From: Pilimelia terevasa
GTDB taxonomy: Bacteria > Actinomycetota > Actinomycetes > Mycobacteriales > Micromonosporaceae
Direction of reading: 5' to 3'
NCBI RefSeq assembly: GCF_014647915.1
Contig: NZ_BMQC01000003.1
Span: 315,800 to 347,799 of the forward strand
Length of the DNA stretch: 32,000 nt
Positions 1,789 through 24,650 of this stretch are shown here, piece after piece; position 1 is the first letter of the stretch, and the number at the start of each line of letters is the position of its first letter. Made by a program: the position numbers and the translations under genes. The notes below the pieces were generated by a model that saw nothing but the letters and a program-made list of their open reading frames with translations, searched no databases and was not told where the DNA came from.

Positions 1789-2477
<689 letters not shown>

Positions 2478-2502
<25 letters not shown>

Positions 2503-3272
2503 TTCGAGAAGTTGAAGTCCGTGTTGTCGCCGCGCAGGCCCACCCGGCCGGGCTTGGTGATCGGCGCGCAGCCGGTGCCCTTGTCGGTGATCGAGAAGAC
2601 CGGCACGTCGGCGCGGTTGACCCCGATCGTGACCGAGCCGTCCTTGTTGTTCTGGACGTTGGCGGAGTACCACTTCCACTGGCCCGGGGTGGGCTTGTAC
2701 TTCACCGCGCCGGTGCCGAGGGTGTAGTAGGTGCCGCCGTTGGAGGGGCCGCCGGGGCACTTCTTCTTGGCGACGATCGCGCCGTCGCGGCGGGCGACCG
2801 AGACGTAGTACAGCGACGCCTCGTGCTGGTAGCGCAGGAAGATGTGCAGGCCGTCCCAGTCCACGACGGGGGTGCTGCGGGTGGCGGTCTGGCTGTTGAT
2901 CAGGAGCTTCATCCGCACCTGGACGTCGCCGAAGTCGGCGCGCTTGGTGGTGAGGCGGAAGATCGCCGAGTTGGTGCCGGGGTTGGAGTCGCCGTCGGGG
3001 ACCCGGTCGTTGACCGGACCGCTCCAGTAGGCCGGGCCCTCCGCCGTGGGGCGGGTGAACAGCGAGCCGCTGTCCATCTGCCAGTCGGGGGACTGCACCG
3101 CGTCGCGCGCACCCTGGTTCCAGTACGCGTACTCGTTGGTGACGAGGCGCGTGTCCGCAGCCGGCGTCGGCGCGTAGAGCGTCGTGACGGCCGCGGCGGC
3201 CGGGGTCGGCATGACTGCTGCACCGAAGGCGAGGGCGGCGGTGACGGCGAGGGTCTTGATCCGGTGCTGCAT
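2478..3272 (-). CDS. secreted hypothetical protein, predicted concanavalin-A/LamG-like jelly roll (paralog A)
   Basis: ATG at 3272. Signal peptide MQHRIKTLAVTAALAFGAAVMPTPAAAA. C-terminal GRVGLRGDNTDFNFSNYKV resembles the terminal strand motif of DUF1080/LamG-type domains. About 50 percent identical by eye to the 3505..4332 product. Confidence 0.8.
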
Positions 3273-3504: not shown

Positions 3505-4332
3505 ATGTCCCTTCCGCACTTCCCGCGCACAGCGCTGGCGACCGCGGCGCTGCTGGTCGGCACGCTTTCCGTACCGGCTCCGACGCCCGCCTCGGCGGCC
3601 CTCATCAATCTGCCGCTGTGGAGGTCCACCCCGTCGATCGACGAAGGTCTGGTAACCAACGAATTCGCCACGTACAACCCGCTGCTCTCGATCTCCCGGT
3701 ACTCCCCGGACTGGGTGATGAGCAGCGGATCGCTCTTTGCCGTCCACTCGCCGTACGGCCCCGCCTACTACAGCGGCCACGTGGACGACCGGGAGCCCGA
3801 CGCGCTGTCGGCCCGGAGCACCAACTCCGCCATCTTCCGCATGGTCAGCCGGCGCGACGACTTCCGCAACAACACCGTCCGGCTCAAGATCCGGGTCACG
3901 GACCAGCGCAGCACCCGGTCCACGCCCCGCTCGGACTGGGACGGCGTGCACCTGTGGCTGCGCCACCAGAGCGAGACGCACACCTACTACGCCAGCCTCG
4001 CCCGGCGCGACGGCCGCATGGTGATCAAGAAGAAGTGTCCCGGCGGCCGGATCAACGGCGGCCGGTACTACGAGCTGAGCGACGAGATCGACGGCTTCCC
4101 GATCTACGAGGACGAGTGGAAGCGGTTCACCGTCACCATCCGCAACAACTCCTCCGGCTCCGTCACCATCGGCGTGTACCGGCTGGACAAGCTCGTCCTG
4201 CGGGCGGTCGACGACGGGGTGGGCTGCGAGCCGATCACGTCGCCGGGCCAGGTCGGCATCCGCGGCGACAACACCGAGTTCGCGTTCGCCGACTTCGAGG
4301 TCGACCCCTGGGAGTCCGAACCGGGCGAGTGA
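3505..4332 (+). CDS. secreted hypothetical protein, predicted concanavalin-A/LamG-like jelly roll (paralog B)
   Basis: ATG at 3505 with an AGAGG Shine-Dalgarno 6 nt upstream. Signal peptide ...LLVGTLSVPAPTPASAA. Blocks shared with paralog A: LVTNE, SPDW, SGSLF, GPAY, TNSAIFR, STRSTP, DWDG.H, RRDG, KKKCPGG, GSVTIGV, G.RGDNT.F.F. Confidence 0.8.
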   Translation: MSLPHFPRTALATAALLVGTLSVPAPTPASAALINLPLWRSTPSIDEGLVTNEFATYNPLLSISRYSPDWVMSSGSLFAVHSPYGPAYYSGHVDDREPDALSARSTNSAIFRMVSRRDDFRNNTVRLKIRVTDQRSTRSTPRSDWDGVHLWLRHQSETHTYYASLARRDGRMVIKKKCPGGRINGGRYYELSDEIDGFPIYEDEWKRFTVTIRNNSSGSVTIGVYRLDKLVLRAVDDGVGCEPITSPGQVGIRGDNTEFAFADFEVDPWESEPGE

Positions 4333-4341
4333 GCCCGCACG

Positions 4342-4385
4342 CGACGAAGGAGGGGGTGGGCCGCGGCCCACCCCCTCCTTCGTCG
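4342..4385. terminator. bidirectional intrinsic-terminator-like hairpin between convergent genes
   Basis: Perfect 21-bp arms CGACGAAGGAGGGGGTGGGCC / GGCCCACCCCCTCCTTCGTCG with a 2-nt centre. Located 10 nt after the + strand stop (4332) and 10 nt before the minus-strand stop (4395). Confidence 0.8.
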
Positions 4386-4394
4386 TGCTCCCGG

Positions 4395-5165
4395 CTAGCG
4401 CAGCGCCGCGGTGCAGTAGCCGCGCGAACGCAGCCCCTCGATGATCGCCGGCAGCGCCTCGACGGTGTTCTGCGCGTCGGCCGTACCGTCGTGCAGCAGG
4501 ACCGACATGCCCGGCTGGGCGTTCTGCACCACCGCGTTGGCCAGGTCGGCCGGCCGGCGGCCGCGCCAGTCCTCGCTGTCGAACGTCCACGAGGACGGCC
4601 GCAGCCCCAGCTCGTTGGCGACGGTGTCGACGGTGCGCCCGCCGCTGCCGAACGGCGGCCGGACCAGCACCGGGGCGGGGGCCCCGGCGGCGGTGATGGC
4701 CTCCTGGGTGCGGACGAGCTGGTCCCGGACGACCGCGGCGTCGAGGTCCGCGAGGTGCGGGTGGTCCCAGCTGTGGTTACCGACGGTGTGCCCGTCGGCG
4801 ACCATCGCCCGCACCGTGGTCGCGTCGGCCCGCGCCTTCTCGCCGAGGACGAAGAAGGTCGCCTGCGCCTGGTACGCCCGCAGCACCGCCAGGACCGGGC
4901 CGGTGTACGGACCCGGGCCGTCGTCGAACGTCAGCGCCACCTGCCCGCGGGTGCACGGGTTGGCCAGGGCCGACGCGGGCGGGTCCAGCCGCGGGGTGGT
5001 GGCCGGCGAGGCCGCCGGTGCCGCGTCGACCGTGGTGGCCGGGCGGACCAGCAGGACCGCGGCCACCGCGAGCGCCGCGGCGGTCACCCCCAGCTCGGCG
5101 ACGGAGCGCACGACCGACCGGCGGGCCGGGCGGGTGTCGTTCTGGCGGCGGACCCGACGACTCAC
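4395..5165 (-). CDS. secreted polysaccharide deacetylase (CE4, NodB homology domain)
   Basis: Inside ORF 4395..6050. GTG start at 5165 overlaps the upstream TGA as GTGA. N-terminal TM/signal segment. NodB motifs: LTFDDGP, GNHSWDH, LVRPPFG. Confidence 0.88.
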   Translation of the reverse strand: MSRRVRRQNDTRPARRSVVRSVAELGVTAAALAVAAVLLVRPATTVDAAPAASPATTPRLDPPASALANPCTRGQVALTFDDGPGPYTGPVLAVLRAYQAQATFFVLGEKARADATTVRAMVADGHTVGNHSWDHPHLADLDAAVVRDQLVRTQEAITAAGAPAPVLVRPPFGSGGRTVDTVANELGLRPSSWTFDSEDWRGRRPADLANAVVQNAQPGMSVLLHDGTADAQNTVEALPAIIEGLRSRGYCTAALR

Positions 5166-6508
5166 GCGGCGCCACCGACCTCGGCGAGGTGGTAGTCGTC
5201 CGTGATCACGGTGCCCAGGCCGGTCAGCGCGAGGCCGAAGCTGAGCGCCGTGGCGCCCGCCGGGACCGCGGGCGAGACCAGCTCGGCCATCGACCAGGTC
5301 TGGCCGTCGGCCCGCACCGGCCCGGTGCGCCAGTACTTCCACGCGCCCTCGGCGTCCTTGTAGTAGAGGACCATCCGCACGCTGGTGGTCGGACCCCAGG
5401 AGCCCTTGTGCCAGACCTGCGCCCGGTAGGTCCTGCCGGGGGTGACCTCCGGGGCGCACGCGGCCTCGGCCTGGTGCGTGATCAGCTTGCGGTCGCCGGA
5501 GGTGTAGCTGGTGACCTGGACCTGCTGGGCGTACGAGCCGGTGTGGCCGCCGGTGACCCGGGACCAGACGACCGAGTTGGTGCCGAAGCCGCCCTTCTGG
5601 AAGCAGCTCGGGGTGCTGACCGCGCCGACGGCCTCCAGGCTCGGGTTGACGACCAGGTTGCCGGGCTGCGTCGGCAGCTTGGGCCCGTTGACCCCGGGCT
5701 GGGCGTTGCCGCCGACGACCTCGTCGACGGTGCGCACGACGGTGCCGGAGCCCTTGCGCGCGTTCAGCCAGTCCAGGAACTGGCCGAACAGGGTCGGGCT
5801 GATGGTGTACGTGCCGCCGCACACGTTCGCGCAGACGTGGTGCAGGACGAGCTGGACCCAGCCGCCCCCGTCCTGCTCCGCGTTGGTGACGTAGGACTTG
5901 AGTTCGGCCAGCGTCGTGGTGTCCTTGATCGAGTCGCTGGCGCGCGTCATGAACGCGTTCTGCGCCGGCATCTTCTCCGACTTCGGGCACGTCGCGCACG
6001 TGTTCGGCGACACGATCCCGCCGACGGTGCGGGCGCTGTTGTAGCCGCACTTGGCCGCGACCGCCTGGGTGGTGCCGTCGGCGTCGCCGTACGGGTACGC
6101 CAGGCTCTTGACCTGGAAACCGCGCTGGATCAGGTTGACCCGGTCGTCGCAGATCTCGCGCTTCTGGTCGTCGGTCACCAGCGTCGGGAGGTCCACGTGG
6201 TCGGTGGTGTGGCCGCCGATCTCGTGGCCCTGCGCGACCAGGGCCTCCAGGTCGTCCTGGGAGAGGAAGCCGGCCGCGCCGACCCGCCCGGAGTTGACGT
6301 AGAAGGTGCCCTTCATGCCGCGCGCGTTCAGCAGCGGCGCCGCCTCGGTGAGGTGGTTCTTCACACCGTCGTCGAAGGTCAGCGACACCACGGTGGGCAT
6401 CGTCTCCTCCTGGGCGTACGAGCTGGCGCTCGCGATGAGCGCCACGCTCGCGGCGACCGCGATGGAGACCGGCCAGACGGCCTTTCGCAGTCGGGGGAAT
6501 TTTCGCAT
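5162..6508 (-). CDS. secreted polysaccharide deacetylase (CE4) with C-terminal carbohydrate-binding (CBM4_9-like) domain
   Basis: ATG at 6508 (MRKFPRLRK... signal peptide ending ASSYAQEE). NodB motifs: LTFDDG, GGHTTDH, LAYPYG. C-terminal ~150 aa beta-sandwich-like region begins GNLVVNPSLE. The longer start at 6559 is less likely. Confidence 0.88.
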   Translation of the reverse strand: MRKFPRLRKAVWPVSIAVAASVALIASASSYAQEETMPTVVSLTFDDGVKNHLTEAAPLLNARGMKGTFYVNSGRVGAAGFLSQDDLEALVAQGHEIGGHTTDHVDLPTLVTDDQKREICDDRVNLIQRGFQVKSLAYPYGDADGTTQAVAAKCGYNSARTVGGIVSPNTCATCPKSEKMPAQNAFMTRASDSIKDTTTLAELKSYVTNAEQDGGGWVQLVLHHVCANVCGGTYTISPTLFGQFLDWLNARKGSGTVVRTVDEVVGGNAQPGVNGPKLPTQPGNLVVNPSLEAVGAVSTPSCFQKGGFGTNSVVWSRVTGGHTGSYAQQVQVTSYTSGDRKLITHQAEAACAPEVTPGRTYRAQVWHKGSWGPTTSVRMVLYYKDAEGAWKYWRTGPVRADGQTWSMAELVSPAVPAGATALSFGLALTGLGTVITDDYHLAEVGGAA

Positions 6509-6572
6509 CAATGTCCCTGCCATCACTCGGGGCCGGAGGTGTCCGGCCGGCTCTCTCACTTGCTCCTCCCGG

Positions 6573-8081
6573 TCAGCCGGTGGTCACCCCCGTCATGCGG
6601 GCCCGGTTGAGCGAAAGCACACAGCCGCCGGTGGTCTCGGCGCCGAAGGCGACCCCGCCCGCGGCGAGGCGGTGGTCGACGGCCGCGGTCAGCGGCGCGC
6701 CCCCGGCCACCTGGACCCAGGCGCGGCGCCCCTGCACCCGCACCTGCACGGTCCGCCGGATGCCGGCCGGCACCGCGCGCTCGGCCAGGGTCCGCCGCGG
6801 GCCGTTGAGGATCTGCTGCCGGATGGCGACCCGCGCGTTGCCGAGGGCGACCTCCACGCGGCCGTAGTGGCCGGTGCCGGTGCCGGTCCGGACGCCGATC
6901 ACCGCGGTGCACCGCGGGTTGGTGCCGGAGACGTCGGCGGAGACGGTGTAGTCCAGCCAGCGGGTGGTGTTGACGTCCGGGTCCTCGCAGAGGCCGGAGC
7001 GGCGCGCGTCCAGGACGATGAGCTGCGGCGAGCGGCGGCAGCGCACCGGGTTCGTCGGGTCCGGCTGGAGGTCCAGGTCGGCCAGGTCCGCGGGCGGGGT
7101 GACCGGCTGGGCGCCGTAGATCAGCTCCATGAGGCGGCCGGCGCCGAGCGTCGTGCGCACGCCGATCCGCGGCAGGTGCCAGCGCGGCGACCGCGCGCGG
7201 ACCGCGTCGATGTGGCCGGTGGGCACTCCCTCGCCGAGGAACGCCAGGCCGTACCCGGCCTCGGCCAGCAGCTCGGGCAGCGCCTTGCGCAGCTCCGGCT
7301 GCTCGTCGTCCTGGCCGGCGTCGCCGAACGGGTAGGCGAAGGCCGCCGCCGGCCCGCCCAGGCGCTTCCTGAAGTACCCCTGGCTCGCGGCGAGGTCCGC
7401 GCGGACGCGGTCCTTCCACTCGTCCAGCGACTCGACCCGGCCGTCGCGCAGCTTCAGGTGCGACAGCCCCGGGCGCAGGTTGCCCGGTACCGGGACCATC
7501 GTGTCCAGCGCGTGGGTGCGCGCGCCGAACTCCCAGCGGCCCGTGTCGCGCAGGTCGCCGAGCTGGCGGTGGGACAGGTACTTCGACGGGGTGCCGGCGC
7601 TGACCAGGCGCCCGGTGGTGAGGAACGCCGCGGCCGTGAAGCCGTGCCGGGCCAGCATCGGGTCGGCGGTCGTCCAGTCGGTGATCGAGCCTCCGTCGAA
7701 GGTGATCAGGACCGCCCGCGGCGGCAGGTCGACCTGGCCGCCGTCCAGCATGGCCCGGACGTCGGCGAGCCGGACGCTGCGGTACCCCGCGCCGGCCAGC
7801 GCGGCCAGGTGCGCCGCGAAGGTGTCCCGGCTGATCGCGCTGGACTCCCGCGGCTTGTCGGTGATGCTGTGGTACGTCAGGACGGTCACGGTGTCCGGGA
7901 CGATCGGCACCGCGCGCGCCGGGGCCGCCGGCGCGGCCGACAGCGCCGCCAACTGCGGCGGGTCGAACGGCTTGCTCAGCTTCACCCAGGCGTCCACGGC
8001 CACGGCGAGGGTGACCACGGCCAGCCCCGCGGTCAGCACGCGGAACAGGCCGCCGACGACGTTGTTGTTGCGCTCAGACAT
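6573..8081 (-). CDS. membrane-anchored PgaB/IcaB-like deacetylase-family protein with divergent metal-site motifs and a C-terminal jelly-roll-like domain
   Basis: ATG at 8081 overlaps the GT2 stop by 8 nt. N-terminal TM helix (GGLFRVLTAGLAVVTLAVAV). Motifs: LTYHSI, ITFDGG (not FDDG), GARTHALD (not HxxxH), FAYPFGD. C-terminal ~150 aa ends AAGGVAFGAETTGG. Confidence 0.8.
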   Translation of the reverse strand: MSERNNNVVGGLFRVLTAGLAVVTLAVAVDAWVKLSKPFDPPQLAALSAAPAAPARAVPIVPDTVTVLTYHSITDKPRESSAISRDTFAAHLAALAGAGYRSVRLADVRAMLDGGQVDLPPRAVLITFDGGSITDWTTADPMLARHGFTAAAFLTTGRLVSAGTPSKYLSHRQLGDLRDTGRWEFGARTHALDTMVPVPGNLRPGLSHLKLRDGRVESLDEWKDRVRADLAASQGYFRKRLGGPAAAFAYPFGDAGQDDEQPELRKALPELLAEAGYGLAFLGEGVPTGHIDAVRARSPRWHLPRIGVRTTLGAGRLMELIYGAQPVTPPADLADLDLQPDPTNPVRCRRSPQLIVLDARRSGLCEDPDVNTTRWLDYTVSADVSGTNPRCTAVIGVRTGTGTGHYGRVEVALGNARVAIRQQILNGPRRTLAERAVPAGIRRTVQVRVQGRRAWVQVAGGAPLTAAVDHRLAAGGVAFGAETTGGCVLSLNRARMTGVTTG

Positions 8082-9492
8082 GGCTCACCGCCCGGTGGGT
8101 GCTGGCCGGCCGCGGGGACGGCACGGAGGTCGGTACGGCGTCGCGGGTGCCCCACTTGCCGTCGCGGATGCGTAGGAGTGCCCAGAGAAGCTGCGGCGAG
8201 AAGGCGATGTAGAAGAACGCGCCGAGAAACGCGTACGGCCACAGCCCGTCGTTGCGCAGCGCCCGGTACAACAACGAGTAAGCCCCCGAAATGAGGTACA
8301 ACCCGACGAAGTACACGACCGGAAAACGCCCGTGCGTGAGCGGCTGGATGAGGCTGTACAGCAGCACCAGCGGGCTGAGCAGCCCGGCCAGCGTCTGCAC
8401 GGCGACCGCCGGCAGCGCCCGGGTGCGCGACCGCCAGATGTGCCCCAGCAGCAGCGGACCCTCCCGCGACCAGGACTTCTTCCAGCGAAGCTGCTGGCGG
8501 AAGAACTTGCCGTACTCCTCGGGCGCGTCGGTGTGGGCCTTGGCGCGCGAGTCGTACTTGGCGGTCCAGCCGGCCTTGAGGATCCGGTTGGTCAGCGCCC
8601 GGTCGTCCCCGTACGTGCACTCCACGCCCAGGAACCGCTGGTGCTCCCACTCCTCCAGCAGCGGCAGGACGGCCTCGCGGCGGTACGCGGCGAAGCAGCC
8701 CGAGCAGCAGGTGACCGCCCCGAGCACCGACTCGGCGCTCTTGAGGAGCTGGAACGAGATGTAGTACCGGGTGGCCTGCATCCGGGTCAGGGTGTTGGCG
8801 AACGCGTTGCGGACGAAGGTCAGGCCGGAGATCGCCCCGACCCGGCGGTCGTCGAAGCCCTGCACGAGGTGCCGGATCGCGTCGGGCTCCGGCATCGAGT
8901 CGGAGTCGACGAACACCAGGATCTCGGCCGTGGTGGCCCGGATCCCGGCCGCCATGGCGGCCCGCTTGCCCTGGTTGCTGCCCAGGTCGATGCAGCGGAC
9001 CGCCCCGGCGGGGTAGAGCTGCGCGGCGGCGTTCATCTGCTGCCACGTGTCGTCGGACGAGCCGTCGTTGACCACGACCAGCTCCAGCTTGTGGCCGGGG
9101 TAGTCGAGCTGGCGGCAGGAGTGGATCGTCCGCGCGACGGCCTCCCCCTCGTTGAACGCGGGCACCACGATCGCCACGGCGGGCTCCAGGCCGACGTTGC
9201 GCGGCGGCCGGTAGAACAGCGCCAGCCCGAAGCGGCTGAGCACGTACCCGGTGACGACGATCGTGTACCCGGCGGCGAACAGGTCGCCGCGCAGGTACGC
9301 GACCTTGACGCCGAGGTGCCAGGCGATCAGCGCGCAGATGCCGCCGACCGCCAGGAGCGCGGCGACGGCGACCGGGCCGGTGCGGTCCGGTCGCCCGTCG
9401 CCGCGGGCGCGCGGGGCGCCGAAGGGGAGGGATTCGGGGTGGGGGTCGCGGGCGACCGGAGTGGGCGGCCCGTCGGAGGAGCGTTGATACAC
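8074..9492 (-). CDS. processive family-2 glycosyltransferase, class I hyaluronan synthase / NodC / chitin-synthase-like
   Basis: GTG at 9492. Multi-TM N- and C-termini. Motifs: VVPAFNE, VVNDGSSDDT, NQGKR, VFVDSDS, CCSGCFAAYRRE, YGDDRALTN, QQLRWKKSW (QxxRW), C-terminal KWGTR. Colinear with S. pyogenes HasA as I remember it. Confidence 0.9.
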   Translation of the reverse strand: MYQRSSDGPPTPVARDPHPESLPFGAPRARGDGRPDRTGPVAVAALLAVGGICALIAWHLGVKVAYLRGDLFAAGYTIVVTGYVLSRFGLALFYRPPRNVGLEPAVAIVVPAFNEGEAVARTIHSCRQLDYPGHKLELVVVNDGSSDDTWQQMNAAAQLYPAGAVRCIDLGSNQGKRAAMAAGIRATTAEILVFVDSDSMPEPDAIRHLVQGFDDRRVGAISGLTFVRNAFANTLTRMQATRYYISFQLLKSAESVLGAVTCCSGCFAAYRREAVLPLLEEWEHQRFLGVECTYGDDRALTNRILKAGWTAKYDSRAKAHTDAPEEYGKFFRQQLRWKKSWSREGPLLLGHIWRSRTRALPAVAVQTLAGLLSPLVLLYSLIQPLTHGRFPVVYFVGLYLISGAYSLLYRALRNDGLWPYAFLGAFFYIAFSPQLLWALLRIRDGKWGTRDAVPTSVPSPRPASTHRAVSHV

Positions 9493-9502
9493 GGTGGCGC
9501 CC

Positions 9503-10810
9503 TTACAGTGTGGAGACGTGCGGGGCTGGGGCGAAGCGGTTCCGGGTGTCGAGCAGCCGCGTCGCGGCGGCGCTGATGGCCGGGTAGTCGAACGCGTCGT
9601 GGTCGGTCACGAGCACGCAGAGGTCGGCGCGGGCGGCGGCGGCGACGATGTCGCCCGGGGCGACCGGCTTGACGCCGGGGAACTCGCGGGCGAGCCGCAC
9701 CGGCAGGTCCCGCACCAGCGGGTCGGCGACCGAGACGGCGGCCCCGCCCCGGACGAGCTGCTCGATCAGCCCGGTGGTGGGCGTCTCCCGGGTGTCGCCG
9801 CTGTTCGGCTTGTACGCCAGGCCCAGCACCAGCACGTGCGCCCCGTTGACGGCCATCCGCCCGTCGTTGAGCTGCTCGACGATGCGCTGGTAGACGTACC
9901 GCGGCTGGTCGGCGTTGACCCGCATGGCAAGGTCCACGAAGTCGAACCGGCGGCCGAGCGTGCGCTCGATCCGGTCCGACAGGTACGCCGGGTCGACGGG
10001 CAGGCAGTGGCCGCCGACCCCCGGGCCGGGGTTGAACCGCTGGTAGCCGTACGGCTTGCTGGCGGCGGCGTCCAGCACGTCCCAGATGGAGACGTGCAGC
10101 GCGTGCGCGTGCCGGCTCAGCTCGTTGACCAGGGCGATGTTGACGTGCCGGTAGGTGTTCTCCAGCAGCTTGGCCATCTCCGCGGTGGCGGCGCTGGGGC
10201 AGGCGACGACGGTGTCGCAGATGCCCGAGTAGAAGCTCTCGGTGGCCCGGCGGCTGGCCGAGTTCACGCCGGAGACCAGCTTCGGGGTGTTGCCGAAGTG
10301 CCAGGTGGCGTTGCCCGGGTCGATCCGCTCCGGCGAGAACCCGACGAGCAGGTCGCCGTCCTCCACGGTGATGCCGGCCGCGTTGCGCTCCAGGGCCTCG
10401 CGGAACTCGCCGTCGGTGGTGCCCGGGGCGACGGTCGACTCCAGGACCACGAGGCAGCCGGGGCGCAGGTGCGCGGCGAGGTCCCCCGCGGCGGCCAGGA
10501 CCGCGGTCAGGTCGGGGCGGTCCTCGCGCAGCGGCGTCGGCACCGTCACCAGCGCGACGTCGAAGCCGGCCAGGTCGCGGGCGTCGCGCGTGGGCAGGTA
10601 CCGGCCCGTGCCGAGCAGGCCGCTGACGTCCCCGTCGGTGAGGTCGTCGATCGGCGAGACGCCGGAGCGCAGCGCCTCGATCTTCGCGACGTCGATGTCG
10701 TACCCGACGACGGTGTGCCCGGCCTCGACGGCGGCCCGGGCGGCCGGGAGGCCGACGTAGCCCTGGCCGACCACGGCGACCCGGGACAGCGAGGGTGGTG
10801 TGCACTTCAT
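9503..10810 (-). CDS. nucleotide-sugar 6-dehydrogenase, WecC/WbpA/WbpO/TviB-like (UDP-N-acetylhexosamine dehydrogenase type)
   Basis: ATG at 10810 with a GGAAGGG Shine-Dalgarno upstream. Rossmann motif VVGQGYVGLP. Also FSPERIDPGN, TAEMAKLLENTYRHVNIALVNEL, NPGPGVGGHCLPVDP. The track ORF start at 10951 is upstream in non-coding-looking sequence. Confidence 0.9.
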   Translation of the reverse strand: MKCTPPSLSRVAVVGQGYVGLPAARAAVEAGHTVVGYDIDVAKIEALRSGVSPIDDLTDGDVSGLLGTGRYLPTRDARDLAGFDVALVTVPTPLREDRPDLTAVLAAAGDLAAHLRPGCLVVLESTVAPGTTDGEFREALERNAAGITVEDGDLLVGFSPERIDPGNATWHFGNTPKLVSGVNSASRRATESFYSGICDTVVACPSAATAEMAKLLENTYRHVNIALVNELSRHAHALHVSIWDVLDAAASKPYGYQRFNPGPGVGGHCLPVDPAYLSDRIERTLGRRFDFVDLAMRVNADQPRYVYQRIVEQLNDGRMAVNGAHVLVLGLAYKPNSGDTRETPTTGLIEQLVRGGAAVSVADPLVRDLPVRLAREFPGVKPVAPGDIVAAAARADLCVLVTDHDAFDYPAISAAATRLLDTRNRFAPAPHVSTL

Positions 10811-11329
10811 GGCCGCAGCCCTTCCAGAAGGAGTCCAGATTGGAGACAAGCAAGGGCACCCATTGACCGATATCGGCAAATGCCCGAATTGTCCATGCGG
10901 TGGACTAACGCGAGGAGGACGGAAGTGGCACGGATCGGCGACACAAAGCAACTTCGGAGCTAGGTCAATCAGGGTCGCCGCTTCGTTACCGAACCGTGCG
11001 CCCGAACGTCGTACAAACAGTCACCGAACGGGCCATATCGACACCTCCTGGCCTGGTCAGACGCCCTCTGGCCCATCGGTTACGGGAACCGCACGGACGA
11101 GGGAGGCGACGACCCCGGACGGGGGAAGCGAATTCACCCGTGGCGGCCGCGCGGGACGGTGCCCTGAAGGCCCACGACCCCGGCACGTCCGGCCCCGCGC
11201 GCGGGCCGCCCGGCCGGCGTCGGGGCGGCCGTCCGGTCGACGTCCACTGCGGACCGGGCCGACCCGGCCCCACCCTGCCGGATGCGCCGGACGGCGCCAG
11301 TGCCGGAGGTCCCGCCCCGGCCCCGCCCG

Positions 11330-12991
11330 TCACCGCGCCGCGGCGGCGGCGACGCAGGCGTGCAGCGGGGTCCACCAGTACAGCCGGGTGCCGCGGGGCC
11401 GCGTCCGGGCGACGACGAACCCGCCGCCGTGCCGGTCGGCGCGCTCGGCCAGGTTCACCAGGCCGCTGCGGGCGTCCGCCGGGTCGATGCCCACGCCGTC
11501 GTCGGTGACGGTCAGGCTGACCCGGTCCGCGACCTCGACGACCACCTCGACGGCGCCGCAGCCGGCGTGCCGGGTCACGTTCGACAGGGCCTCCTGGAGC
11601 ACCGCGAGCAGGTCCGCCCGGACGGCGTCGGGGACCGCGCTGTCGACCGGCCCGCGGATCTCGATCCGCGGGGCGAACCCCAGGCTCGCGGCGGCCGCGC
11701 GGATGATCTCGTACAGCTCGCCGCGCAGCGCGCCGCACGGCGGCCGGCGCAGCTCGAAGATCGTCCGCCGGATGTCGCGGATGGTGGCATCCAGGTCGTC
11801 CACCGCGGCGTCGATGCGCTGGCGCACGGTCCGGGCGGCCAGCAGGCCCGCGCTCTGCAACTGCAGGCCGGTGGCGAACAGCCGCTGGATCACCACGTCG
11901 TGCAGGTCGCGGGCGATCCGTCCGCGGTCCTCCAGGACGGCGAGCAGCTCCCGCTCCTCCTGCGCCCGGACCCGCTCCATCGCGAGCGCCGCCTGCGCCG
12001 CGAAGCTGGCCAGCAGGGGCAGGTCCTCCGGCGGCTGGGCGGCGGCGTCCGCCGCCCGGGCGACCACCAGCACGCCGTGCAGCGTGTCGCCGGCCGCCAG
12101 CGGCGACACCACCGCCGGGCAGGAGCCCACGGGGACCGGCCACGGCGCCGCCCGACCCAGGTCCTCGACGACGACCTGGCGACGGCTGATCACCACGTCG
12201 GCGACGGCGGTGCCCGCGGCGGGCAGCACGGCGCCGGTCAGTCCGGCGACCACGCCCCCGGGGTGGTCGGCCACCTCGACGGTGAACTGGCCGCCGTCCT
12301 CGTCGTAGAGCAGCACGATCGCCCACTCGGCCTCGGCCACCTCCCGGGCGCGCCGCGCCACGAGCGTCAGCGCGTCGGTCCGGCGGACCGTGCCCAGCAG
12401 CAGCGAGGTGATCTCGGCGGTGGCCGCCAGCCACCGCTCCCGGCGGCTGGCCGCGGCGTACAGGCGGGCGTTCTCGATGGCGACTCCGGCCGCGGCGGCG
12501 AGCGCGACCAGTACCTCCTCGTCGTCGTCGGTGAAGCCCGCGCCGCCGCGCTTCTCGCCCAGGTAGAGGTTGCCGTAGAGGGCGCCGCCCACCCAGACCG
12601 GCACGCCCAGGACCGGCAGGATCCCCCCGGCGGCGGGGCCGCCCGCCGCCGGGGGGCTGTCGAAGCCCGGGTGGGCGGACCCGTCGGTGGCGTACGTGAC
12701 GAGGTGGACCGGCTGGCCGGGCGCCCCGAGGACGGCGAACGCCCCGTACCGGGCGTCCACCAGGTCGCAGGCCGCTTCGGTGATCCGCCGCAGCGTCATC
12801 CGAAGATCCAATCGCGAGCTGATACTGGCCACCACCGCGTCCAGCAGCGAACGCAGGCAGTCCCGACTGAGCCGCACGTCGCCCACCCGGCTCAACATCC
12901 CGTGCAGCAGCGCGTCCGTCCGCGCGCGGGACAGCGGGGTCAGCGCGAGCGACAGCGCGCTGGCGCCGAGAACTCTGGGCTCGACGTTCAC
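11330..12991 (-). CDS. sensor histidine kinase with two GAF domains, HisKA_3 and HATPase_c (DevS/DosS/DosT-like)
   Basis: GTG at 12991. GAF-A: LVDARYGAF...LGVPV...LYLGEK. GAF-B follows. H-box RIARDLHDVVIQRLFATGLQLQ. ATPase: EALSNVTRHA, DDGVGI, GLVNLAERA. The alternative-frame ORF 10986..12995 is rejected. Confidence 0.92.
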   Translation of the reverse strand: MNVEPRVLGASALSLALTPLSRARTDALLHGMLSRVGDVRLSRDCLRSLLDAVVASISSRLDLRMTLRRITEAACDLVDARYGAFAVLGAPGQPVHLVTYATDGSAHPGFDSPPAAGGPAAGGILPVLGVPVWVGGALYGNLYLGEKRGGAGFTDDDEEVLVALAAAAGVAIENARLYAAASRRERWLAATAEITSLLLGTVRRTDALTLVARRAREVAEAEWAIVLLYDEDGGQFTVEVADHPGGVVAGLTGAVLPAAGTAVADVVISRRQVVVEDLGRAAPWPVPVGSCPAVVSPLAAGDTLHGVLVVARAADAAAQPPEDLPLLASFAAQAALAMERVRAQEERELLAVLEDRGRIARDLHDVVIQRLFATGLQLQSAGLLAARTVRQRIDAAVDDLDATIRDIRRTIFELRRPPCGALRGELYEIIRAAAASLGFAPRIEIRGPVDSAVPDAVRADLLAVLQEALSNVTRHAGCGAVEVVVEVADRVSLTVTDDGVGIDPADARSGLVNLAERADRHGGGFVVARTRPRGTRLYWWTPLHACVAAAAAR

Positions 12992-13140: not shown

Positions 13141-13526
13141 CCCGGGCCGACGGGTGTACCGGGGGGGGGCGCGACGCCACCGCGCGCCGACTTTCCACGG
13201 CGCAATCACCGCGGTGCCGCGGTCCACAACGGATCGGATCGACGCACCCCGCCGGCTCCCGCCGGCACCGCGGCGGAGTCGTCCCCGGCGCCGCCCGCGG
13301 CCGGTACCGGCGGGCGGCCGACGACACGCGGAGCGGCCGCCGGGCGGGGCCGACAACCCGGACCAAGCGGACTATAAGCCGCGAGCACGGTACGCCATTT
13401 ATGGATTTCCATCTATACACGCCCCCGCATGGGACCTACTGTCGAGGACAGTCGCATCGACGGCACTCATAGTCATGTCGTCGGCGGCCCCGACACCCCG
13501 ACCCATCCCGCTCCGACACCCTGGGA

Positions 13527-14462
13527 GTGCCCATGCGCCACCGCCCGCTCGTCGTCGCCGGCCTGGTCGCCGCGCTCAGCGCGACGGCCGTCCTCACCGC
13601 CACCATGGCGCAGGCGGACACCACACCCGTCCGGCTGGTCGCCGCCGACCCGCCGACCATCCCGACCAGCGCCCCGCTCGTGCACATCGGGGACCTCCAG
13701 AAGATCGCCGACGCCAACGGCGGCACCCGCGCCCACGGCCGCCCGGGGCACAAGGCGTCCGTCGAGGCGGTCAAGGCCAAGCTCGACGCGGTCGGCTTCA
13801 AGACCCAGGTCGTGCCGTTCAACCACGCGGGCGCGCAGGGCTGGAACCTCATCGCCGACTGGACGGGCGGCGACGAGAACAACATCCTGATGGTCGGCGC
13901 GCACATCGACAGCGTCACCGCGGGCCCCGGCCTCAACGACAACGGCTCCGGCACCTCCGCCATCCTGGAGGTCGCCCTCCAGGTCGCGAAGGCCAACCTG
14001 AAGCCCACCCGGCACCTGCGCTTCGCGTGGTGGGGCGCCGAGGAGATCGGCCTGATCGGTTCGTCGGCGTACGTGCGCGCCCTGCCCGCCGCCGAGAAGT
14101 CGAAGATCAAGTCGTACCTGAACTTCGACATGGTGGCGACCAAGAAGGTCAAGAAGTGGGGCGTCTACAGCGACGGCGACAAGGCCCTGGCCGCCGAGAT
14201 CAAGGCGTGGTACGACGCGCGCAACGTCCCCACCGTCCCGCTGGACATCAACGGCCGCTCCGACCACGCGGCGTTCACCCGCGCCGGCATCGCCGCCAGC
14301 GGCGTCATCTCCGAGGACAGCCTCAGCAACCTGGACCCGTGCTACCACAAGGCGTGTGACACCCAGACCAGCCTGAGCCCCGACGCCCTGGGCCTGGCGA
14401 CGAACATGATCGCCGGCGTGATGTGGAAGCTCTCCGGCGCCAAGGTGGCCGCCCGCTCCTGA
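13527..14462 (+). CDS. secreted M28-family aminopeptidase (Streptomyces griseus aminopeptidase-like)
   Basis: Signal peptide. Metal-ligand blocks: GAHIDSV, NDNGSG, WWGAEEIGLIGS, NFDM, SDH. The start could be 13527 or 13533. Confidence 0.92.
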   Translation: MPMRHRPLVVAGLVAALSATAVLTATMAQADTTPVRLVAADPPTIPTSAPLVHIGDLQKIADANGGTRAHGRPGHKASVEAVKAKLDAVGFKTQVVPFNHAGAQGWNLIADWTGGDENNILMVGAHIDSVTAGPGLNDNGSGTSAILEVALQVAKANLKPTRHLRFAWWGAEEIGLIGSSAYVRALPAAEKSKIKSYLNFDMVATKKVKKWGVYSDGDKALAAEIKAWYDARNVPTVPLDINGRSDHAAFTRAGIAASGVISEDSLSNLDPCYHKACDTQTSLSPDALGLATNMIAGVMWKLSGAKVAARS

Positions 14463-14566: not shown

Positions 14567-15163
14567 TCAGCCGACCTGGGCGAAGCCCTCGTCGGGAACG
14601 CTGTCGTACCCGGCGAGCGACTCGGTGTTGTTGACGTCGAGGTCGTACATGGTCTCGACGCGGTAGCCGGCCTTGGCCGGGTTACCGATGCAGCTCAGCG
14701 GGATGGTGATGGTGTGCACCCCGTTGACGAAGTCGCCGTTGCCGGTGCAGGCCGGGGCGTCGGTGTCGGAGGCCGGGAGCTTGTAGACGTCGGCGTAGAT
14801 GTCGCCGTCCTCGTCCAGGCCGTACTCGACGTCGAAGTCCTCCTTGTTGTCACCGTTGGTGTCGATCAGGAAGTCGGTGAGCGAGGACTCGCTCTCCCAG
14901 TTCGGGTCCTCGGCCGGGCTGAGCTGCTTGGCGGTCTTGTAGGTCAGCACCAGGTTGGCACCGGACTTCTTCACGTCCCCGTTGGTGATGTCGGCGTACG
15001 GCGCGTCGACGAGCTCGTCGTCGTCGTTGTAGACGTCGCCCGCCGGGTCGGTCACCGCGACCGGGGCCGCGGGGGTGACCGCGAGCGCCGGGGTGGCGAG
15101 ACCGAGGCCGATGGCCGGAACGGCGACGACGAGCGCCGCGCGCTGCCAGGTCAGGAGCTTCAT
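14567..15163 (-). CDS. secreted acidic hypothetical protein
   Basis: ATG at 15163. Signal peptide MKLLTWQRAALVVAVPAIGLGLATPALA. Asp/Glu-rich mature part with two Cys. High GC3. No family recognised. Confidence 0.7.
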   Translation of the reverse strand: MKLLTWQRAALVVAVPAIGLGLATPALAVTPAAPVAVTDPAGDVYNDDDELVDAPYADITNGDVKKSGANLVLTYKTAKQLSPAEDPNWESESSLTDFLIDTNGDNKEDFDVEYGLDEDGDIYADVYKLPASDTDAPACTGNGDFVNGVHTITIPLSCIGNPAKAGYRVETMYDLDVNNTESLAGYDSVPDEGFAQVG

Positions 15164-15507
15164 GAAGTGTGGTCCCCTCTGAGGTTGCGGTTGCGATCGC
15201 CGACATTACGAATGTCGTCGATATGACACAAGAGGCCGGTGGGCTACTAGTTTTCACGGCCTTTGCCATAGTCCACAAGCGGTACCGACCGAATTGGACG
15301 ACTTTCCCAGCAGATATCCCGCCCCGAGCAACCTCTGCGGGCGAGAATGACGGGCGTCGTCCCGTGCCTGCACTCCCTTCCCGAGCGTTTCCGCCGCGAA
15401 ACCGGCGAGTGACATGGATAACGATCTCTCGGCGCGGCGACCGGGCGGCGGCCGCGCGGCGCGGGAGGATGGCGGACGTACCCGCCGATTACGGAAAGGG
15501 CTCCGGC

Positions 15508-16686
15508 ATGGACACCGCGATCGTGCTCTTCACCCGCGATCTCCGCGTGCACGACAACCCCGCCCTGGCGGCGGCCTGCCAGCTCGCGCGGCGCGTCGTC
15601 CCGCTGTTCGTCCGCGACCGGGCGGTCCGGGCCGGGGACCCGCGGCAGGCGTTTCTGGCCGGGGCGCTGGCCGACCTGCGCGGGTCGCTGCGGGAGCGCG
15701 GTGGCGACCTGGTGGTCCGGGAGGGCGACCCGGTGGCCGAGACCCTCCGGCTGGCCCGCGAGGTCGGCGCCGAAGGGGTGGCGGTGGCGCGCGACGTGTC
15801 CCGGTTCGCGCAGCGGCGGTACGACCGGCTGGCCGAGGCGTGCGGAGCGCACCGGATCGCCCTCAAGGGGTTCGACTCGGTGACCGTCGTCGCGCCGTTC
15901 GCGCTCAGGCCGGCCGGCGGCGACCACTACAAGGTGTTCAGCCCGTACTGGCGCCGCTGGCGGGAGCTGCCGCACCGCGCCGTCCTGCCGGCGCCGTCGA
16001 AGGTGGAGCTGCCCGCGGGCGTGGCGGTCGGCCGGCTGCCCGGCGGCGCCGACCGCGCCCCGGTCCCCGGCGGGGAGCGGGCCGCCCGCGAGCGGATGCG
16101 CCGCTGGGACGGCAGCGACTACGTCGAGGGCCACGACGACCTGGCCGGGGACCGGACGTCGCGGCTGTCGCCGTACCTGCACTTCGGCTGCCTGTCGCCG
16201 GTCGAGCTGATCGGCAAGGCCGGCGTGCCCGAGGAGTTCGTCCGGCAGGTCTGCTGGCGGGACTTCTACGCCCAGGTGTGCGCCGCCTTCCCGCAGATCG
16301 TCGACACCCCGTACCGCCCGGGCGCGCACGACGAGTGGCGCGGCTCCGACGCCGACTTCGACCGGTGGGCGGCCGGCGAGACCGGCGTGCCGCTGGTGGA
16401 CGCCGGGATGCGCCAGCTCGCCGCGCAGGGCTGGATGCACAACCGGGCGCGCCTGGTCACCGCCTCGTACCTGACCAAGGACCTCGGCGTCGACTGGCGC
16501 CGCGGCGCCGCCCACTTCATGGCGGCGCTGGTCGACGGGGACGTCGCCAACAACTACGGCAACTGGCAGTGGGTGGCCGGCACCGGCAACGACACCCGGC
16601 CGTACCGCAAGTTCAACCCGCACCGGCAGGCCGAGCGCTACGACCCCAGCGGCGGATATCGACAGCGATGGCTGGATCGGGTGTGA
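15508..16686 (+). CDS. phr: deoxyribodipyrimidine photolyase / cryptochrome family protein, C-terminally short
   Basis: In ORF 15169..16686. ATG at 15508 follows GGAAAGGG; ATG at 15469 is also possible. Motifs: IVLFTRDLRVHDNPAL, TSRLSPYLHFG, WRDFY, GWMHNRARLVTASYL, DGDVANNYGNWQWVAGTG, FNP. The protein ends at YRQRWLDRV, where E. coli Phr continues for about 50 aa. Confidence 0.88.
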   Translation: MDTAIVLFTRDLRVHDNPALAAACQLARRVVPLFVRDRAVRAGDPRQAFLAGALADLRGSLRERGGDLVVREGDPVAETLRLAREVGAEGVAVARDVSRFAQRRYDRLAEACGAHRIALKGFDSVTVVAPFALRPAGGDHYKVFSPYWRRWRELPHRAVLPAPSKVELPAGVAVGRLPGGADRAPVPGGERAARERMRRWDGSDYVEGHDDLAGDRTSRLSPYLHFGCLSPVELIGKAGVPEEFVRQVCWRDFYAQVCAAFPQIVDTPYRPGAHDEWRGSDADFDRWAAGETGVPLVDAGMRQLAAQGWMHNRARLVTASYLTKDLGVDWRRGAAHFMAALVDGDVANNYGNWQWVAGTGNDTRPYRKFNPHRQAERYDPSGGYRQRWLDRV

Positions 16687-24391: not shown

Positions 24392-24650
24392 GACGTGCCT
24401 CCCCGACCTACTGCACCTGTACCAGGACCCATCGTCGCAACCGGCGTGCACCTGAGTTCTTCCCCGACGGCAACTGTCCGACTTTCTCCTGGGGACACGG
24501 CCGACTTCTCCCGAAGCCCGGCCGGCGACCCCCGCGGGCGGGTACACCTCCACAGGGGCGGTGTTCCGGGTGCACTCATGTCCGGGCCGGGACCGCCGAA
24601 GGGCAGTGCACTGGAGCACTGTCCGTACGCGATGGGGGTTGGCGGTACCC

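Follow-up and report, generated by a model that had tools for sequence, protein, structure and literature searches.

We have analysed a stretch of 32,000 nucleotides from the actinomycete Pilimelia terevasa (RefSeq assembly GCF_014647915.1, contig NZ_BMQC01000003.1, positions 315,800 to 347,799 of the forward strand), referred to here as the window, in whose coordinates all positions are given and whose G+C content is about 70–80%. The subject is a cluster of five genes on its minus strand at 4395–10810, delimited by frame analysis of the G+C content at third codon positions (GC3) and by the listing of open reading frames (ORFs), together with two genes for secreted proteins located just past its end. 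The data support a system in which a nucleotide-sugar dehydrogenase of the UDP-N-acetylhexosamine (UDP-HexNAc) type would feed a membrane synthase resembling hyaluronan synthase (HAS), with de-N-acetylation taking place outside the cell, the polymer itself being predicted from the genes. The features of the locus are the following.

10811–11329, minus strand: non-coding, presumed promoter and 5' leader of the operon (519 bp)
9503–10810, minus strand: nucleotide-sugar 6-dehydrogenase, UDP-HexNAc clade (435 amino acids, aa; assigned by Pfam, NCBIfam, PDB ranking and neighbour-joining tree)
8074–9492, minus strand: GT2 synthase, membrane-integrated, of the HAS/NodC/chitin-synthase superfamily (472 aa; Pfam, NCBIfam, PDB and AlphaFold2 model)
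6573–8081, minus strand: membrane-anchored CE4-fold protein with an N-terminal transmembrane helix, here called CE4tm (502 aa; Polysacc_deac_1)
5162–6508, minus strand: second CE4, secreted, with a C-terminal extension (448 aa from ATG 6508; Polysacc_deac_1)
4395–5165, minus strand: NodB/PdaB-like CE4 with an N-terminal signal or anchor (256 aa; Polysacc_deac_1)
4342–4385, no strand: 44-nt palindrome between convergent genes (20-bp stem, 4-nt loop)
3505–4332, plus strand: concanavalin A (ConA)-like secreted beta-jelly-roll protein, paralogue of the 2478–3272 gene product (275 aa)
2478–3272, minus strand: ConA-like secreted beta-jelly-roll protein of an unnamed family (264 aa)

The location of the five genes on one strand and the lengths of their junctions, as given in an earlier note on this DNA, were confirmed by the ORF listing and by a check of starts and stops. 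There is a 10-nt gap between the dehydrogenase and GT2 genes, an 8-nt overlap between GT2 and CE4tm (8074–8081), a 64-nt gap between CE4tm and the second CE4, and a 4-nt GTGA overlap between the second and the NodB-like CE4 (5162–5165). The second CE4 may alternatively start at GTG 6559, after the Shine-Dalgarno sequence GGGAGGAG, in which case the protein would have 465 aa and the gap would be of 13 nt, not 64. The upstream stretch of 519 bp described before as non-coding also stands, the GC3 coding signal being absent across most of it; it lies between the start of the dehydrogenase gene and the stop of a GAF/HisKA_3 kinase gene on the same strand. No Rfam family (at E ≤ 1) and no BldD box were detected in this leader, and the consensus scan returned neither a sigma-70-type promoter nor a U-tailed terminator, a result that is uninformative for an actinomycete with 72% G+C. 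The hairpin that closes the operon is perfect, as had been claimed, and strong (−57.7 kcal/mol, z = −7.5, with none of 200 shuffled sequences folding equally well), although its stem measures 20 bp, with a loop of 4 nt, and not 21 bp. It lacks a U-tract, and its position between convergent genes would allow it to serve both of them, so that it is probably a bidirectional, I-shaped terminator. The limits first set for the system (4395–10810) proved too narrow, since the conserved set also includes the two ConA-like genes at 2478–3272 and 3505–4332. This conservation was followed by a genome scan that gave 284 loci with relatives of the GT2, of which the best 80 were fetched and underlie the locus counts given below.

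The dehydrogenase contains the three UDPG_MGDP_dh domains (PF03721, PF00984 and PF03720), all above cut-off, and reaches 351 bits against the 190 required by TIGR03026, an assignment at the subfamily level. Among the more specific NCBIfam models, those of UDP-ManNAc dehydrogenases (WecC-type) gave 213 and 196 bits and TviB 177, with the UDP-glucose dehydrogenase models AglM, TuaD and Ugd at 164, 121 and 41 bits, respectively. The ranking of PDB sequences was headed by 4r16 (a UDP-ManNAcA dehydrogenase), followed by CalS8, 3g79 and Cap5O, all of them above the UDP-glucose dehydrogenases. The signature motifs already pointed out in this protein, FSPERIDPG, ENTYRHVNIALVNEL and GPGVGGHCLPVDP, are all present in the translation, and the last of them holds the catalytic-cysteine motif GGHCLPVDP, of the type GGHC[IL]xxDP found in the HexNAc clade. 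The equivalent motif in Ugd-type enzymes is GGSCFxKD. In a neighbour-joining tree built with the genuine WecC and Ugd of E. coli and rooted on Ugd, the dehydrogenases of the window and of the related loci fell on the same side as WecC, at a large distance from Ugd, and E. coli WecC (28% identical to the window protein) branched outside all the locus-associated enzymes. The ranking of hidden Markov models (HMMs), the PDB ranking, the motif and the tree agree in supporting the UDP-HexNAc clade proposed before, not Ugd/HasB, and in none of the HMM, PDB and tree comparisons did the protein cluster with UDP-glucose dehydrogenases. The likely reaction is the conversion of UDP-GlcNAc into UDP-GlcNAcA, the simplest precursor because no epimerase is linked to the locus. 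A 100% identical public entry carries the automatic, KEGG-style name 'UDP-N-acetyl-D-glucosamine dehydrogenase', and the family to which the Pilimelia enzyme belongs is widespread in other actinomycetes at 50–55% identity.

The GT2 protein matches the Pfam families Glyco_tranf_2_3, Glycos_transf_2 and Chitin_synth_2. The set of processive-synthase motifs recognised in it previously (DGSSDDT, VDSDS, GDDRALT and QQLRW) was found complete in the translation, and D143, D196xD198, G295DD, Q333xxRW and W447GTR do not vary among 44 homologues. Its PDB sequence matches were Xenopus HAS1 (XlHAS1, 121.7 bits) and Chlorella virus HAS (CvHAS, 99 bits), with chitin synthases at about 28–36 bits, and the alignment to XlHAS1 and CvHAS spans residues 166–451, a stretch that takes in the transmembrane region as well as the C-terminal WGTR loop. 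The AlphaFold2 model (predicted local distance difference test, pLDDT, 84; predicted template-modelling score 0.83) retrieved only HASs as its top 13 fold matches in the PDB, with template-modelling scores (TM-scores) of up to 0.69; PcManGT, BcsA and chitin synthases came next. Both the motifs and the modelled fold are those of class I HAS and support a HAS-like, membrane-integrated synthase. The partner of a class I HAS, a UDP-glucose dehydrogenase, was not found, the partner being of HexNAc type here and in every locus examined. As to the end-to-end resemblance to streptococcal HasA noted before, HASs are the nearest solved structures by sequence and fold, at an identity of just 20–23%. The best curated models both fail, NodC (TIGR04242) with 178 bits of the 550 required and PgaC/IcaA (TIGR03937) with 132 of 422, so that the protein falls outside the known-product clade of MatB/PgaC. 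The possibility that it is a PgaC, MatB or NodC equivalog was ruled out by these scores, and there is no NodA-like gene. Among automatic names, the 100% identical public entry is called 'chitin synthase' and the JGI ones 'hyaluronan synthase'. In CvHAS the carboxylate of GlcA is reported to be contacted by K177 and R341 (PMC12987647). These residues align with K176 and R336 of the GT2, which are conserved. Both positions presumably sit in motifs common to NodC and chitin synthases, and the use of UDP-GlcA-binding residues to tell HAS from chitin synthase or NodC was dropped for this reason.

The three CE4 proteins have clearly different features. CE4tm matches Polysacc_deac_1 with 38 bits, and its beta-rich C-terminal domain is of an unnamed family, without any Pfam match for residues 325–502. 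The resemblance to PgaB is restricted to the N-terminal domain of the latter (71 bits, cut-off 322), and the IcaB model gave 34 bits (cut-off 248), so that a partner of PgaB/IcaB type was not found. Most CE4tm orthologues have TFDDG and H[ST]xxxH, with a spacing like that of PgaB. However, in all three Pilimelia species (the window and the loci L001 and L047) we found TFDGG and R[ST]HALD (RTHALD in the window), i.e., the Asp-His-His metal triad has been lost, with Asp changed to Gly and the two His to Arg and Asp. The triad is degenerate in 24 of the 47 loci that have other CE4 genes and in 2 of the 17 that do not (Fisher p = 0.008, uncorrected for phylogeny), which suggests that the protein has repeatedly decayed into a pseudo-enzyme where secreted CE4s had become available, and would fit redundancy. 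The loss of the ligands, the 8-nt overlap with the GT2 stop and the fact that this is the most conserved neighbour are the reasons to consider CE4tm of Pilimelia as probably a non-catalytic partner of the synthase. A much longer CE4tm-like gene, of about 690–725 aa, was seen in the loci L062, L068, L070, L071, L074 and L079 (Crenothrix, Methylocaldum, Holophaga and some metagenome-assembled genomes); in L062, L068, L071 and L079 it is located about 4–7 kb from the GT2 gene and is not adjacent to it.

The second CE4 matches Polysacc_deac_1 with 85 bits and has TFDDG, HTxxH, YPYG and LxHH conserved in 46 orthologues; the CE4 motifs MT1, MT2 and MT5 are present and MT3 appears as the variant YPYG. 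Its C-terminal beta domain (~160 aa) may bind carbohydrates; the carbohydrate-binding module (CBM) that had been attributed to one of the deacetylases has as its sole support a match of this domain to CBM_4_9 of 15.9 bits (E = 0.017), below the cut-off. The NodB-like CE4 gave the highest score for Polysacc_deac_1 (122 bits) and fell below the cut-off for more specific families (NodB model, 136 bits against 240; PdaB model, 133 bits), and its five CE4 motifs (TFDDG, HSWDH, RPPFG, DxxDW and LLHD) are intact and conserved in 34 sequences. The previous estimate of up to three deacetylases has to be lowered, given the missing metal triad of CE4tm in the three Pilimelia species, and it is plausible that at most two of the proteins (4395–5165 and 5162–6508) are catalytic in Pilimelia.

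The two ConA-like proteins are paralogues (49% identical) transcribed divergently just past the hairpin, and neither matched any Pfam or NCBIfam family. They belong to a family with at least 334 homologues, all of them annotated as 'hypothetical'; a few are fusions with an F5/8 type C (PF00754) or a PF17957 domain, and faint matches to DUF1080 were seen. At least one further paralogue is found in P. terevasa on another contig (P0128). In the 2478–3272 protein the residues E47, R106, D140, H143, Y155, R161, R162, D163, K169–171, R247 and D249 are invariant, and the invariant Arg, Lys, His and Tyr are compatible with the binding of an acidic polymer. Its AlphaFold2 model (pLDDT 93.7) is a ConA-like beta-jelly roll; its best PDB matches, at TM-scores of about 0.30–0.50, are CBM66, legume lectins, GH16 enzymes and two kinds of lyase (a PL28 ulvan lyase and PL7 alginate lyases). 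From this model it is likely that these proteins bind or cleave a glycan, and a lyase, which would suit a polymer containing uronic acid, can be put forward as a hypothesis. The idea that the C-terminal regions of the CE4s share a domain with the ConA-like proteins was considered and rejected (hhalign probabilities of 0.3%, 12% and 0.2%).

The search for the same gene order in other actinobacterial genomes, suggested in the earlier note, was successful. The order dehydrogenase, GT2, CE4tm, second CE4, NodB-like CE4 and 2478-like protein was found in Pilimelia, Micromonospora, Actinomadura, Spirillospora and Actinoallomurus, and the core of the set extends beyond the Actinomycetota. When the GT2 was at least 60% identical to that of the window, the dehydrogenase was present in 39 of 45 loci (immediately upstream in 32 of 45), CE4tm in 40 of 44, the second CE4 in 42 of 44, the NodB-like CE4 in 30 of 44 and the 2478-like ConA protein in 43 of 44. 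At GT2 identities below 50% the dehydrogenase was immediately upstream in 13 of 25 loci and CE4tm was found in 17 of 24, with the second CE4, the NodB-like CE4 and the ConA protein present in 1, 2 and 3 of 17, respectively. Altogether CE4tm is the most conserved partner of the GT2 (59/73 loci), and in 46 of 72 loci the gene immediately preceding that of the GT2, in the same orientation, encodes a dehydrogenase with GGHC[IL]xxDP. All the locus dehydrogenases examined had this motif and none the Ugd-type one. The distant loci (Acidimicrobiia, Thermoleophilia, Saccharibacteria, Woesebacteria, Crenothrix, Holophaga and others) share a core of dehydrogenase, GT2 and CE4 at GT2 identities of 41–48%. 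Of the arguments at hand for the dehydrogenase feeding the synthase, this linkage beyond the genome of P. terevasa is the strongest.

The locus dehydrogenases themselves fall into at least three subclades. The main actinomycete clade is 35–41% identical to the window enzyme; a second one contains the enzymes of Pilimelia, Actinoplanes (L002), Trebonia, Geodermatophilus and Acidimicrobiia, and the third is represented by the TviB-like dehydrogenase of Crenothrix (468 bits). The pairing of several subclades with the same GT2 family is what would be expected if the shared need were a UDP-HexNAc-uronic acid. In the Micromonosporaceae loci L002–L005 the GT2-linked dehydrogenases are of differing subclades, encoded on the opposite strand in L002 and several kb away in L003 and L004, which looks like the displacement of one paralogue by another with the linkage to the GT2 kept. 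All-versus-all clustering of the ORFs in the 80 loci revealed no recurring epimerase, decarboxylase, Wzx/Wzy, flippase or ABC exporter, and otherwise produced only lineage-specific neighbours and antisense artefacts. A further locus, L081 (IMGVR_UViG_3300019888_000005, 53625–66758, on a 66-kb contig), contains the dehydrogenase, the GT2, CE4tm and two copies of the ConA-like gene, with a GT2 just 41% identical to that of the window, indicating that the linkage is old. Although filed as viral, this contig may represent host DNA, either misclassified or flanking a prophage; a viral origin of the system was discarded, this being the single IMG/VR contig with a relative and carrying the bacterial cassette.

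With these elements we propose that the product of the locus is an extracellular amino-uronic polysaccharide, made by a synthase-dependent pathway, a reading to which, judging from sequences and models, we give an even chance. In this pathway the dehydrogenase would oxidise a UDP-N-acetylhexosamine at C6, in the simplest case UDP-GlcNAc to UDP-GlcNAcA. The GT2, whose fold is known from the model and whose substrates are predicted, would polymerise the sugar and move the chain through its own transmembrane channel, giving either a homopolymer or an alternation with GlcNAc, in the way that HAS alternates GlcA and GlcNAc. CE4tm, translationally coupled to the synthase, might receive or hold the nascent chain. 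Outside the cell, the two secreted CE4s with intact motifs would strip some of the N-acetyl groups, and the two ConA-like proteins would bind or cleave the polymer, a lyase being suited to a 4-linked uronic acid. As to the composition of the product, we only infer that it would contain HexNAc-uronic acid and/or HexNAc and be zwitterionic.

The closest parallel known to us is not bacterial. In fungi and in algal viruses of the phycodnavirus group, UNGD (a UDP-GlcNAc 6-dehydrogenase) adjoins a chitin-synthase-like gene (CHS8; CV/ESV classes) and in one clade a polysaccharide deacetylase (CDA1) is the third gene; the product is unknown, and Fusarium and Trichoderma mutants have phenotypes (PMC4059230, PMC5122149, PMC7053769). 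The combination of a HexNAc-type dehydrogenase, a GT2 of the chitin/hyaluronan superfamily and a CE4 matches the architecture described for this cluster, although the latter is eukaryotic or viral and neither a second or third CE4 nor a ConA-like secreted protein has been described in it. The bacterial GT2 is just a remote relative of the viral enzymes: among its viral fold matches ESV-1-84 was the second best (TM-score 0.65, 17% identity), other viral proteins being 15–22% identical. A common origin of the bacterial and the fungal/viral clusters is possible, and so is convergence. MatAB, previously considered the nearest analogue, is displaced from that place by this cluster. A more complete version of our proposal is that this is an undescribed system, widespread in Actinomycetota and with its core in other phyla, that would be the bacterial counterpart of UNGD-CHS8-CDA and make a polymer of GlcNAcA alone or of GlcNAcA and GlcNAc (an N-acetylated analogue of hyaluronan, or 'acidic chitin'), partly de-N-acetylated, zwitterionic and processed by ConA-fold proteins, possibly lyases. 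In this full form we advance it tentatively, as something possible rather than probable.

Several points weigh against these proposals. The dehydrogenase is below every NCBIfam equivalog cut-off (WecC 196 against 459 and 213 against 750 bits; TviB 177 against 592), which leaves its substrate ambiguous among GlcNAc, ManNAc and GalNAc, and the WecC-type models are slightly ahead of TviB. It was not seen within the fetched flanks of 6 of the 45 close and 12 of the 25 distant loci. The conservation of K176 and R336 in the GT2 does not reveal the donor because their motifs are, as we take them to be, superfamily-wide. For the ConA-like protein all fold matches are weak, and lectins, CBMs, lyases and hydrolases are represented side by side among them. 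Finally, the co-transcription of the five genes is deduced from their spacing alone, and the activity of each member and the nature of the product are predicted here from sequence and models alone.

The alternative that survives best is a chitin or chitosan-type pathway, in which the GT2 would use UDP-GlcNAc only and make a beta-1,4-GlcNAc polymer or chito-oligomers to be deacetylated by the CE4s, while the dehydrogenase would serve another pathway, e.g., that of a cell-wall glycopolymer. It would account for NodC being the top NCBIfam model of the GT2 (178 bits) and for the score of the NodB-like CE4 (136 bits), but both values are far under their cut-offs and there is no NodA. The Pfam match to Chitin_synth_2 and the public name 'chitin synthase' point in the same direction, yet the nearest solved fold is that of HAS and not of a chitin synthase. 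As for the dehydrogenase, its family is widespread in other actinomycetes and some loci do not have it; against this, its location directly upstream in 46 of the 72 loci, across phyla and in several subclades, would be hard to understand without functional coupling. On balance we consider this alternative unlikely.

A second alternative keeps the dehydrogenase in the pathway and changes its substrate, i.e., the enzyme would be a UDP-ManNAc dehydrogenase like WecC or Cap5O, with the 2-epimerase encoded elsewhere, and the GT2 would produce a teichuronic-acid-like polymer containing beta-ManNAcA. No WecB/Cap5P-like epimerase is present in the window or recurrent in the 80 loci, and E. coli WecC, with its 28% identity, lies outside all the locus dehydrogenases in the tree, even if the WecC-type models are the top equivalogs (213 and 196 bits against 177 for TviB) and the best PDB match, 4r16, is annotated as a UDP-ManNAcA dehydrogenase. 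In addition, the Crenothrix locus uses a TviB-like (UDP-GlcNAc) enzyme, the automatic name of the Pilimelia one is UDP-GlcNAc dehydrogenase, and the relatives of the GT2 (HAS, NodC and chitin synthases) all use gluco-configured donors. This makes the ManNAcA polymer improbable.

Hyaluronan or a heparosan-like product, for which the dehydrogenase would make UDP-GlcA and the GT2 alternate GlcA and GlcNAc, was suggested by the pairing of a synthase with a dehydrogenase as in hasAB, by HAS being the nearest solved structure and by the JGI names. We find it very hard to reconcile with a GGHC..DP motif in the place of the Ugd-type GGSCF.KD, with Ugd models that score lowest (41–121 bits), with the 20–23% identity of the GT2 to HAS and with two or three CE4 N-deacetylases that have no counterpart in has operons. 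Finally, that the genes are mere neighbours without a single pathway, their order reflecting the shared ancestry of related actinomycetes, is scarcely credible in spite of the many syntenic loci that come from the related families Micromonosporaceae and Thermomonosporaceae, given the overlapping stop and start codons, the Micromonosporaceae dehydrogenases moved or replaced yet still linked (L002–L004), and the dehydrogenase-GT2-CE4 core in Acidimicrobiia, Thermoleophilia, Saccharibacteria, Woesebacteria, Crenothrix and Holophaga at 41–48% GT2 identity.

Searches of the full-text literature returned no published description of this bacterial locus, which for the amino-uronic pathway proposed here can be compared with several known systems. 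Like the has loci of streptococci and chloroviruses (HasA/HasB), it pairs a single membrane GT2 that would polymerise and export with a nucleotide-sugar 6-dehydrogenase; however, HasB is of the UDP-glucose type while here the enzyme is of the HexNAc clade, the GT2 is about 21% identical, and has loci contain neither deacetylases nor ConA-like proteins. With pgaABCD, icaADBC and the matAB genes of Streptomyces, responsible for poly-N-acetylglucosamine (PNAG), it would share a synthase-dependent HexNAc polymer and its partial de-N-acetylation by an extracytoplasmic CE4, and CE4tm resembles the N-terminal domain of PgaB. Unlike PgaB, CE4tm of Pilimelia has neither a GH153 C-terminal domain nor a metal site, both the GT2 and CE4tm are sub-cut-off for the PNAG models, and PNAG loci have no dehydrogenase. 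The rhizobial NodC and NodB are the best-scoring curated models for the GT2 and the small CE4, but with 178 bits against 550 and 136 against 240, and the Pilimelia-type locus has a dehydrogenase, lacks NodA and is widespread in non-symbiotic actinomycetes. The Vi antigen locus (viaB) also starts a HexNAc-uronic acid polymer with a UDP-GlcNAc-type dehydrogenase (TviB, to which that of Crenothrix is similar). In this case the polymerase is TviE, a GT4 enzyme, instead of a GT2, the 4-epimerase (TviC), ABC exporter and O-acetyltransferase have no equivalents here, and the window dehydrogenase stays at 177 bits of the 592 required for TviB. The sporangium-matrix clusters of Actinoplanes missouriensis (imp, wps-1/2/3 and gsf) were also considered and discarded, as they are of Wzx/Wzy or GtrA type and do not have the set of synthase, dehydrogenase and CE4.

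Synthase-dependent exopolysaccharides are few (cellulose, PNAG, alginate, Pel, hyaluronan) and each of them matters for biofilms, development or virulence. If the proposed pathway is correct, a further system of this kind, with an amino-uronic acid as donor, would extend them to a new polymer chemistry that is acidic or, once de-N-acetylated, zwitterionic. In many actinomycetes of the group the mycelia and sporangia are complex and have poorly known matrices, to which the locus would be relevant. It would also provide a tractable bacterial model for the question of the UNGD-CHS-CDA product in fungi and chloroviruses, open since 2014. Further leads are the recurrent decay of CE4tm to a probable pseudo-enzyme and the unnamed ConA-like family.

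Regarding the surroundings of the locus, the gene that immediately precedes the operon (11330–12991, minus strand) encodes a GAF-GAF-HisKA_3 histidine kinase, and about 2 kb past the operon's end there is one for a NarL/MadR-type response regulator (1789–2502, plus strand). Both were rejected as members of the system, not being co-conserved even in the other two Pilimelia species. A PAS-GGDEF-EAL protein (24456–27389, plus strand), of the kind involved in the turnover of cyclic di-GMP, is located about 14 kb from the operon; cyclic di-GMP is a frequent controller of synthase-dependent exopolysaccharides. Unrelated neighbours are a cytochrome P450 (223–1482, plus strand), a secreted M28 aminopeptidase (13473–14462, plus strand), a small secreted protein without a Pfam family (14567–15163, minus strand) and a DNA photolyase (15169–16686, plus strand). 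Between 16800 and 21000 the G+C of the window rises to as much as 0.80, with a strong GC3 signal and several long overlapping ORFs.

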